A DNA stretch of 64,000 bases from assembly GCA_051313645.2 (NCBI GenBank), contig JBNRSN020000004.1, forward strand, positions 239,754,001-239,818,000, written 5' to 3'. The notes beneath the pieces are model-generated. The model searched no databases. It was not told the DNA's origin and saw only the letters and a program-made list of their open reading frames with translations. Of the stretch, positions 6,690 through 49,363 are shown piece by piece. The stretch's first letter is position 1. Each line of letters begins with the position of its first letter. The translations under genes and the position numbers were made by a program. This stretch comes from Centroscyllium fabricii. Lineage: Eukaryota.

Positions 6690-6888
6690 GTGATGCATGT
6701 CAATTTCTCCAGGCATCAGGTCACATGACTGGCTTGTCCCTGCGATGTATGGAGATACATTTCCACGTCAGCTTACGTTTCCAAATTTTTACTCCGCGGA
6801 TCAGCTTCAAAGAGGCAGCAGCATCTAAGGACCATGTTTAGCTGTGCGAATGCAAGCTATTCTTGCGCTAGGGGACCCCAAGAAAGCG
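6690..6888 (+). promoter_or_regulatory. HoxA11 proximal promoter / 5' UTR conserved block
   Basis: Directly upstream of the HoxA11 ATG; contains GGTCACATGAC (E-box-like) and TTTCCACGTCAGCTTACG, motifs I recognise from vertebrate HoxA11 promoters. Confidence 0.6.
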
Positions 6889-7498
6889 ATGATGGATTTT
6901 GATGAGCGGGTTTCTTGTGGCTCTAATCTTTATTTGCCTAGCTGCACCTATTATGTCTCGGGTCCGGATTTCTCCAGCCTGCCTTCATTTTTACCCCAAA
7001 CACCGGCTTCTCGCCCCATGACATACTCTTACTCGTCTAATATCCCCCAGGTTCAACCTGTGCGAGAAGTTACCTTCAGAGACTATGCCATCGATCCTTC
7101 CAATAAGTGGCATCACAGGGGCAATCTGCCCCATTGCTATTCCGCAGAGGAGCTGATGCACAGAGAATGTCTGCCTGCCAGCACCATGAGCGAGATGTTA
7201 ATGAAAAATACCGCCAGCGTTTACCACCCCAGCTCCAACGCGTCTTCCAGCTTCTACAACCCGGTGGGGAGGAACGGTGTCCTGCCGCAAGGATTTGATC
7301 AGTTCTTCGAGACTGCCTACGGTTCCAGTGAGAATCAGCAGTCGGAGTATTGCGGGGAGAAGAGCCCAGATAAAGTGCCGTCTGCGGCAACTTCAAGTTC
7401 GGAGACTTCGAGGGTGTCCGTGGAGAAAGAGACGAGCCCCGGGAGCAGCAGCCCGGAATCTTCTTCCGGCAACAATGAGGAAAAAGGCAGCAACTCCA
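6889..7498 (+). CDS. hoxa11: Homeobox protein Hox-A11, exon 1
   Basis: [39 protein letters not shown]...[12 protein letters not shown] is the Hox11 N-terminus. The donor A|GTAGGT at 7498/7499 is phase 1 and matches exon 2. Confidence 0.96.
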
Positions 7499-19859: not shown

Positions 19860-20130
19860 TTTGAAGGGCGTGATTCTAATAAAGTAGAACCGAGTAAATA
19901 AAGATGCATTTAGAAGCTTTTGCAGTTTACCGAATACATATGGTGACCTTATTGCAGTTCTAGTGACGTAGCCCGCCGTGGAGGAGGGGCTTATGTCCAG
20001 CTGTGCCATTTGATTGGCTCGTTCCGCCCGTCGTGCTGCGGAGGTATCTCTAATCATATTCAGCGTGTTTGCACAAGAAATGTCAGCCTGAACTGGATAT
20101 CTTCTGCTTTCGCCAAATTACCCCACAACA
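19860..20130 (+). promoter_or_regulatory. HoxA10 promoter / 5' UTR
   Basis: TAATAAA, TGACGT, GC-rich block and ATTGG (reverse CCAAT) immediately 5' of the HoxA10 start. Confidence 0.6.
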
Positions 20131-20893
20131 ATGTCATGCTCAGACAGCCCGGCTGCAAACTCCTTTTTAGTAGATTCTCTGATCAGCGTGGGCCGTGGCG
20201 GGGAAGGAACCTATTACCCCAACAGCAGCGTTTACCTGCCGCCTGCCTCTGATCTGTCTTACGGCATCCAGAACTGTGGACTTTTCCCATCTCTGAGCAA
20301 ACGCAGCGAGAACAACTCTCAGAGTATGGTCCTGACTGCTCATCCCTACATGAGCGGGATGGAGGTCTGGTCAGATCCTCCCAGGTCCTGTCGCATGGAG
20401 CAACCTGCAACCCAGCAAGTAGCAGCATGTTCCTTCCCCCAGAATATCAAAGAAGAGAATGCATATTGCTTATATGATTCTGAGAAATGTCCCAAAAGCG
20501 CAGCCGCAACAGATCTTTCCACGTTCCCAAGGCTAACATCAGAATCGTGCTCCAATAGTGACACTACTACTACTAGCGGCGGGGTTCCTGTCCCCGGCTA
20601 TTTCCGTCTGTCCCAAGCCTATCCGACATCCAAACAGACACTTTACAACAACACGGGCCAAGTTGGGGCCTCTCCATTCGTGCCCCAGTCCCAGATCCGT
20701 TTCGGAACACCCCCTTCTTCAGCTTCGACCCCGACTGAGTTGGGGAGAAAGGGAAGTGAAGGGACATCCCCCGGTCATTTAACCTGCGGTTCGGAAAGAG
20801 AAGAAGCAGACGCCCCGGCTTCTTCAGCGAACGAGGAGTCATCTCCAGTCCCTTCAGAAAGCAACAAAAACTCTCCCGAGAAAGAAGCAAAAG
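20131..20893 (+). CDS. hoxa10: Homeobox protein Hox-A10, exon 1
   Basis: MSCSDSPAANSFLVDSLIS...CSFPQNIKEENAYCLYD...VPVPGYFRLSQAY are Hox10/HoxA10 motifs. Donor G|GTAGGT at 20893/20894. Confidence 0.96.
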
Positions 20894-22485: not shown

Positions 22486-22760
22486 GGGAAGTGAAAGCTG
22501 AAAACGGGGCCAACTGGCTGACTGCAAAGAGTGGCAGAAAAAAACGATGCCCTTACACCAAACATCAGACCCTGGAGCTGGAGAAAGAGTTTCTCTTCAA
22601 CATGTACCTGACTCGAGAGCGTCGCCTAGAGATTAGCCGCAGTGTCCACCTGACTGACAGACAGGTCAAAATCTGGTTTCAAAATCGCAGGATGAAACTC
22701 AAGAAAATGAACCGTGAGAACAGGATTCGGGAGCTCACAGCTAACTTCAGCTTTTCATGA
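22486..22760 (+). CDS. hoxa10: Homeobox protein Hox-A10, exon 2 (homeodomain)
   Basis: Long polypyrimidine tract and TAG| acceptor; [83 protein letters not shown]. Spliced CDS is 345 aa. Confidence 0.97.
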
Positions 22761-24561: not shown

Positions 24562-24645
24562 AACTGATGTGTGATTTAGGTAGTTTCATGTTGTTGGGGC
24601 TCAAGTCTATCTCTACAACACGAAACTGCCTGAATTACTGCAGTT
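24562..24645 (+). ncRNA. mir196: miR-196 precursor hairpin (HoxA locus, positional orthologue of miR-196b); mature 5p at 24577-24598
   Basis: TAGGTAGTTTCATGTTGTTGGG is the mature miR-196 sequence. It pairs with ACAACACGAAACTGCCTG on the 3p arm, with a basal stem AACTG...CAGTT. It lies in the canonical position between Hox10 and Hox9. Confidence 0.96.
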
Positions 24646-48200: not shown

Positions 48201-49363
48201 GCAATTATGGAAAATCGAAGTTGGGATTTGGGGATTATTAGCGAATTTCAGTCGCATGCAATTAAAACAACATTCTGATGGAAGGGAGTCCATGTACAGG
48301 CTTATCAAGTATAAAATTGAGTCTCTGTATGTTTGCAGGCCGCTTGGACGTTTGAATAAACCTCGTAAACGTTGGTTAAATACTTTTCTCTAGAGGTACT
48401 GTGGCATTTGTATACTAAATGCACATGTATAAGCATTCATGCTTTAATGAAGAACGCTGGTGCAATAACAATTACTCCCACACACAATTACTGTGAAATC
48501 TTTTAAAGCTGAGTTATCGCGTTGCGTTCTTCTGTTGGGATTTTCTTTCTAAGATTACCAAAATTAAATCTATAAATCATCTTACTGAATATATATTCTT
48601 ATCACCACGTTCTTTCTATTTCTTTTACCAGTATGAATTTACTGACTGCTGAATGCAGGGACTCTTGGTGTTGTGGGTCTCAGTATTTGTGGACGCTATT
48701 GTTCTTTACCGAGTTTAAAATGGACAGAGAAACATATTATGGAGAGAATGATGTCTGATGTTTCTCAACTAGTCTACACACGCTAACACAAGGAATACTG
48801 TGTCTGCAAAAAGAAAAATCTAAATGGAGAGCTGAATTAATAGAATTAATCTATTCTTACAACTGTTGTTTACCTGTCTAAACTACCCTGTGCATCTACC
48901 TATAACGCACATCTACTGAACTAATGAGTTGTTGATTTATTTCTTATTATCGTCCATTTCCTATCATCTATCTTCTAATCACTGTTGATCCAGCTATTGT
49001 TGGATACGTAATGAACAGTCATATTTCCATATGTGGGGCTATATAAAATATGTATGCACAACTATAACCTGCAATCTAATAGTTTTATTATTTGGCAACT
49101 AATATTCTATAAGAACCACCTCTGTTATAGTTCAGAACTGATTTGGTTGTTTCTAACTTTGCTAGCTCAGTCGCCAGATCTCCAGGGAGTTTTTTGAACC
49201 AATGTCGGTTTCTATTGGCCAGAGACTGATCAGCTGGTTATATTTGCTGCTGTCGCTTTGGCGCTCGGCCATCCTGAAACAAACCACCTCGATGACTACT
49301 AATAGCTAAACCACATTGTGTACTAATACATAACAAATCATATTACTACAGAGTGTGGAGCAA

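Follow-up and report, generated by a model that had tools for sequence, protein, structure and literature searches.

The window, which is the whole 64-kb stretch of shark DNA analysed here, belongs to a HoxA cluster and contains the homeoboxes of HoxA11, HoxA10, HoxA9, HoxA7, HoxA6, and HoxA5. The two coding exons of HoxA10 (Table 1) join into an intact protein of 345 residues, which is 92–97% identical to the 15 listed chondrichthyan proteins from sharks, skates, rays, and chimaeras. Most of the relatives have 344 residues; the window has an extra threonine codon at about 20563–20565, and the contig of organism G is without these three nucleotides. The sequence ATG-TCA-GCC-TGA begins 51 nt upstream of the main ATG of HoxA10, in frame with it, and 13 open codons separate its stop from the main ATG. 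In the 7.2-Gb genome, the HoxA10 leader matches at one place.

The first-pass annotation of this DNA described the upstream open reading frame (uORF) with its in-frame main ATG, stated that annotated human HOXA10 carries an N-terminal extension, and held that the segment cannot encode this extension here. The window sequence bears out the uORF. The extension exists as stated: 84 of the 120 listed HoxA10 homologues have a MSARK-type extension of 16–18 residues, 31 start at the main methionine (one of these is the shark representative), and five are fragments. The coding limit is supported by the TGA at codon 4, as an open frame from the upstream AUG (uAUG) into the main ORF is absent from the window and its relatives. 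Such a frame is present in L004, a teleost-type hoxa10 locus that was the sole locus obtained from a metagenome motif scan and is the only bony DNA in the comparison. The main start of the shark HoxA10 is likely to be at 20131.

Upstream ATGs are also found in other leaders of the window. In the HoxA11 leader, an out-of-frame upstream ATG opens 22 codons (6834–6902) that overlap the start of the protein MMDFDER at 6889. A second ATG, at 6850, is in frame and 39 nt upstream of this start. A conserved Hoxa11 uORF has been reported (PMC8892498) and may be homologous. HoxA6 has a five-codon uORF at 49292–49309, 72 nt before its start, which could extend to sharks a Hoxa6 uORF that the available text of the same source gives as tetrapod-only.

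Table 1 Features of the HoxA10 gene and its leader (positions in the window).
Feature	Position	Strand	Remarks
CRE-like TGACGT and G-rich box (names assumed)	19964..19989	+	Counterparts upstream of HoxB10 and HoxD10; putative function
CCAAT box (ATTGG on the + strand)	20013..20017	-	67 nt before the uAUG
Conserved block ahead of the uAUG	20050..20079	+	28 of 30 nt common with L004; predicted transcription-start region
Motif AGARATGTCAG	20076..20087	+	Common to the HoxA10, HoxB10, and HoxD10 leaders
Three-codon uORF (M-S-A-stop)	20080..20091	+	AUG flanked by G at -3 and T at +4
TGA stop of the uORF	20089..20091	+	TGA in HoxB10 of the same genome, TAC in HoxD10, AGA in L004; probably ancestral
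Non-coding spacer (39 nt) from uORF stop to main start	20092..20130	+	No change listed in five other organisms
First coding exon of HoxA10, beginning at the main ATG	20131..20893	+	A at -3, T at +4
Second coding exon of HoxA10, with the homeodomain, ending at the stop	22486..22760	+

The upstream stop in relatives

The site was checked in contigs, not in raw reads, from eight of the 21 listed sequencing runs. A contig across the site was recovered from every one of these runs except X18: two from organism A and one each from organisms B, C, E, G, and H. The two contigs of organism A may share the source of the window, and the other five come from relatives that are 97–99% identical. None of the seven covering contigs, from six coded organisms, differs from the window at 20064–20231. 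Third positions vary among the contigs in 17 of the 248 codons of exon 1, and at this rate the probability of finding no change over the 67 nt from 20064 to 20130 is about 0.009; for the 39-nt spacer alone P = 0.06, which is not significantly beyond third positions. The stop is therefore common to the relatives, and the leader appears to be under constraint at the nucleotide level although it is non-coding here. The first 33 codons of HoxA10 (20131–20231) likewise have no change listed among the contigs, synonymous or not (P about 0.1 taken alone), and a constraint overlapping the coding sequence in this segment is possible.

The extension is also absent from all 15 listed chondrichthyan HoxA10 proteins, which belong to a 25-member cluster; 14 of them start with MSCS and one at a later methionine, evidence that is indirect because it reflects annotation. 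The stop in the HoxA10 leader is a real, clade-level feature. The first-pass annotation had called for confirmation of T20089, and the alternative that this base is an assembly or sequencing error has in its favour only that bony vertebrates carry A at the site. It conflicts with the agreement of all seven covering contigs and with the absence of a single extended protein among the 15, so that an assembly error is rejected at the level of contigs, if not of raw reads, and its likelihood is negligible.

An upstream AUG common to Hox10 paralogues

A homeodomain search of the same genome identified two further Hox10 genes, which were named by their best matches as HoxD10 (locus L002) and HoxB10 (L003). 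Of 168 candidates, 150 were scored, and the nine that matched at E 1e-20 or better did not include HoxC10. A single copy of the motif AGARATGTCAG is present in the window, in each of the two 9.9-kb paralogue loci, and in L004. Every copy is 50–81 nt ahead of a Hox10 start, which is more than expected by chance. The upstream ATG is intact in all four leaders represented by DNA, always with G at -3 and T at +4, so that the uAUG is kept in the six coded organisms, L004, and the two paralogues.

The reading frame behind the uAUG differs between the genes. The HoxB10 leader encodes M-S-V-stop with TGA at codon 4, and its uAUG is 81 nt upstream of the main start because of a 30-nt C-rich insertion. 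This insertion lies within L003 3024–3104, where three in-frame stops separate the upstream and main ATGs; the uORF stop reads TGA-TAA and is followed by a further stop in the same frame. All 16 HoxB10 proteins start at the main methionine, which is indirect evidence for the leaders of other species. The uAUG of HoxD10 is 50 nt upstream and out of frame, opening an ORF of 30 codons with a 43-nt overlap into the coding sequence. Among 120 listed HoxD10 homologues, 102 start at the main methionine, eight are unclassifiable, and ten are longer. Eight of the ten longer proteins read RDVSLQ or RYVSLQ in the main frame, and the shark main frame reads RDVSLQ, which is consistent with tetrapod and teleost HoxD10 genes carrying the same out-of-frame AUG as the shark; the out-of-frame geometry of HoxD10 thus looks old. 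The HoxD10 proteins P0216 (electric ray) and P0321 (sole, labelled low quality) are annotated from the uAUG, apparently brought into frame by small indels. Together with the stop in shark HoxA10 and HoxB10, the out-of-frame overlap in HoxD10, and the in-frame state in bony HoxA10, these variants show that the frame behind the uAUG is labile while the AUG persists. Since the same extra start precedes HoxB10 and HoxD10, it is likely an ancient regulatory element of the leader that predates the Hox cluster duplications. The leader and paralogue comparisons support two proposals of the first-pass annotation, that conservation acts at the nucleotide level, as it appears to do, and that the second ATG is the likely main start. 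Its suggestion of a minimal uORF, passed by leaky scanning or followed by re-initiation, is plausible.

The first-pass annotation had also considered UGA readthrough; if the UGA were read through or recoded, the shark would continue to produce the extension. In favour of this reading, the spacer contains no stop and keeps the frame of the main ORF. CUAG after a stop is a context for readthrough, and the stop here is followed by ACT. The tandem and additional stops of HoxB10 also argue against readthrough, as does the lack of any changed letter in the contigs of runs guessed to be RNA. A stable leader structure was not found in the three leaders (z = 0.75, 1.10, and 0.28, no better than shuffles), and an Rfam scan of the window matched mir-196 only and no recoding element. 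Readthrough or recoding is unsupported and highly improbable. The mir-196 precursor is at 24568–24641, between HoxA10 and HoxA9, as expected.

Origin of the bony-vertebrate extension

Codon 4 behind the uAUG is TGA in shark HoxA10, AGA in L004, TGA in HoxB10, and TAC in HoxD10, and a single change on the bony branch explains its first base. Ancestral states were calculated directly by likelihood from these four sequences with 145–220 gap-free columns. At the ancestral HoxA10 node, the first base is T with a posterior of 0.97–0.98 (JC and HKY models) and A with 0.01–0.03, and the posteriors of G and A at the following positions are about 0.99, which gives TGA. The set includes one HoxB10, on a long branch, one bony DNA, and neither a cyclostome nor a HoxC10 outgroup. 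Because it consists of four sequences and has no outgroup beyond the paralogues, we hold the conclusion less firmly than the posteriors: the ancestral HoxA10 leader very probably carried the stop TGA. The 17-residue extension of bony-vertebrate HOXA10 is likely to have arisen later, by one stop-loss change. The first-pass annotation had regarded the extension as interrupted in this lineage; as the stop is common to the relatives and to HoxB10, the change probably occurred in the reverse direction.

The opposite history, in which the 17 residues are an ancestral functional part of HoxA10 that cartilaginous fishes lost by a nonsense change, would agree with the presence of the extension in the 84 matches, from both bony fishes and tetrapods, with its 86% mean identity to the consensus, and with its length variants, all of which are in frame. 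The spacer of the window is also still open and in frame. However, T is present at the site in shark HoxA10, HoxB10, and HoxD10, the paralogues break the frame by other routes, and the lack of frameshifts is built into a sample of proteins. The substitutions within the extension are also non-conservative. Among 82 bony representatives, the extension has 37 distinct substitutions with a mean BLOSUM62 score of -1.0, whereas the next 17 residues have 36 with a mean of -0.08 (Mann-Whitney P = 0.001; the substitutions are not phylogenetically independent). Measured against random single-base change in 106 rows, substitutions in the core are more conservative (P = 0.004), whereas those in the extension show no such excess (P = 0.95); the two segments have a similar overall identity of 86–87% in these rows. 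Amino-acid changes in the bony extension thus look unselected for conservative change, unlike those in the adjacent core. We regard the loss of an ancestral extension as unlikely.

At the nucleotide level, identity to L004 is 28/30 upstream of the uAUG, 42/51 in the extension, and 47/57 in the first codons, and the non-coding upstream nucleotides are thus conserved no less than the extension; third positions account for four of nine changes in the extension and seven of ten in the core, numbers too small to test. The open frame in most bony matches (84/120) could reflect selection on the frame. About three nonsense changes would be expected per 37 missense changes, and in a protein sample these would be hidden among the 30 other proteins that start at the main methionine. 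The bony extension may have acquired a function secondarily.

Promoter context, predicted role, and known systems

The sequence upstream of the uAUG carries candidate promoter motifs. ATTGG is located at -67, -70, -66, and -55 nt from the uAUG in the four leaders, which makes it a promoter motif at a conserved distance, and farther upstream is what we take to be a CRE-like site with a G-rich box. CACGTG E-boxes are absent from the 160 nt before the HoxA10 start. They are present in the window at about 30275 and 39490, which places them 137 nt ahead of the HoxA9 start and 136 nt ahead of the HoxA7 start, and resemble the promoter E-boxes described in the available text of PMC9456764.

In Hoxa9, the major transcription start follows the CAAT box at a distance of about 60 nt (PMC9456764), and the same spacing would place the start of HoxA10 near 20073–20077. 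Transcription is predicted to begin about 5–25 nt before the uAUG. The start codon behind the 14-nt leader of the human HOXA10 transcript ENST00000283921.5 is presumably the first AUG; if it is the second, the first AUG is outside the mRNA, and in both cases it lies close to the cap or at it. The length of this leader is listed from the GENCODE annotation (PMC13219423). According to the available text of the same source, leaky scanning is favoured by leaders no longer than 40 nt, and a length of up to 20 nt promotes skipping of the first AUG. The single HeLa CAGE row for HOXA10 in its supplement is 652 nt inside the gene and uninformative.

The main rival of a leaky uORF is that the segment is purely a DNA element of the core promoter and transcription start, in which the ATG is kept only as a part. 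Its position, too near the cap or even upstream of it, would leave it unused, and the frame behind it would drift freely. The CCAAT box at 55–70 nt and the CRE-like sites common to the paralogues fit this reading, as does a start near 20073–20077 by the Hoxa9 spacing. Conservation extends upstream of the ATG and beyond the Kozak positions, hyperconserved Hox leaders have been shown to be promoters (PMC9456764, available text), and a promoter alone accounts equally well for every conservation result. On the other side, the ATG is intact in every leader with DNA, the Hoxc10 and Hoxd10 uORFs are inside CAGE-defined mouse leaders (PMC8892498, available text), and contigs that span the uAUG come from three runs guessed to be RNA, although contigs cannot show transcription starts. 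We consider the promoter-only reading a serious possibility, though short of an even chance. The promoter role and a role as a uORF damper can coexist.

Based on these comparisons, a mechanism for the leaky uORF can be proposed. With transcription beginning about 5–25 nt before the uAUG, many ribosomes would miss it, and most would skip the cap-proximal AUG and initiate at 20131. Ribosomes using the uAUG would stop after three codons and in part re-initiate 39 nt farther on. The net effect would be a mild damping that is sensitive to how stringently start codons are chosen. We infer this damping step by analogy with Hoxa1, Hoxa9, and Hoxa11, in which removal of the uORF raised output 1.2- to 2.5-fold (PMC8892498, available text). 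The conserved entity would be the AUG with its nucleotide surroundings, overlapping the core promoter, and not the peptide. The full reading, in which a uAUG older than the Hox cluster duplications and conserved as nucleotides acts as a leaky cap-proximal decoy that trims Hox10 output, with the protein made from 20131, seems to us evenly balanced between true and false; its evolutionary part is fairly well supported, and the translational function is a prediction. We speculate further, as a reading that is less likely than not, that all vertebrate Hox10 genes inherited a uAUG rheostat about 50 nt upstream from before the genome duplications, and that a single stop loss at the origin of bony vertebrates, in HoxA10 alone, made a productive start of what had been a repressive mini-ORF, which gave HoxA10 a new N-terminus and altered its dose.

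The proposed stop-loss origin calls into question the annotated HOXA10 start in bony vertebrates, including human, as the 17 residues at the N-terminus may have come about incidentally when a uORF lost its stop. This doubt bears on the interpretation of variants and the design of constructs. With the shark leaders, the range of the known Hoxc10 and Hoxd10 uORFs would widen to include cartilaginous fishes and the entire paralogue group. The stop, out-of-frame, and in-frame states form a natural series in which to ask whether it is in transcription or in translation that hyperconserved Hox leaders act.

Conserved Hox uORFs, including those of Hoxc10 and Hoxd10, are already known; the shark HoxA10 and HoxB10 state and the stop-loss origin were not found reported. 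The literature searched, in which older and subscription papers are thinly covered, contained no account of the shark HoxA10 leader, the chondrichthyan stop, or the choice of HOXA10 AUG. HOXA10 is absent from eight supplement files of PMC7397870 and from the isoform-count sheet of PMC13219423, the HoxA10 leader is not discussed in the available part of PMC2746220, and passages of PMC13060157 and PMC12048685 are uninformative on it.

The closest known systems are the conserved inhibitory uORFs with suboptimal AUG context described for Hoxa1, a6, a9, a11, b9, c4, c8, c9, c10, c13, d1, d10, and d11 (Ivanov et al. 2022, PMC8892498, available text), which likewise have a uAUG in a short Hox leader, conserved across vertebrates. 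With G at -3 and T at +4, the shark uAUG falls within their definition of suboptimal, which is the lack of a purine at -3, of G at +4, or of both. The available main text contains no occurrence of Hoxa10 and gives the Hoxc10 and Hoxd10 uORFs as ranging from mammals to tetrapods only; the likeness of their AUGs to the shark element is by gene name. The shark HoxA10 uORF has three codons, whereas those tested by Ivanov et al. have 7–21, and one AUG takes three frame states across the paralogues. By analogy, the HoxA10 uORF would work like these Hox uORFs and is a putative member of the set, with translation and inhibition predicted.

Leaky scanning in short 5' UTRs has been described for in-frame AUG pairs in AKR7A2 and ALDH9A1 (Ly et al. 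2026, PMC13219423, available text). Bony HOXA10 is similar, with AUGs 51 nt apart and the short human leader, whereas shark HoxA10 would yield one protein form only, because its first AUG ends in a stop. The hyperconserved Hox leader promoters (Akirtava et al. 2022, PMC9456764, available text) show the same extreme nucleotide conservation next to a CAAT box that is itself conserved, and likewise lack a conserved RNA structure. They differ in having a CACGTG E-box, and their Hoxa10 construct is a different transcript leader (NM_001122950), not the uAUG element. Re-initiation after very short uORFs has been described in connection with MCTS1/2-DENR (PMC11790910, available text). The uORFs in that system are one codon long and that of HoxA10 has three, and the 39-nt spacer of HoxA10, across which re-initiation is predicted, lies between the 17 and 73 nt of two reporters.
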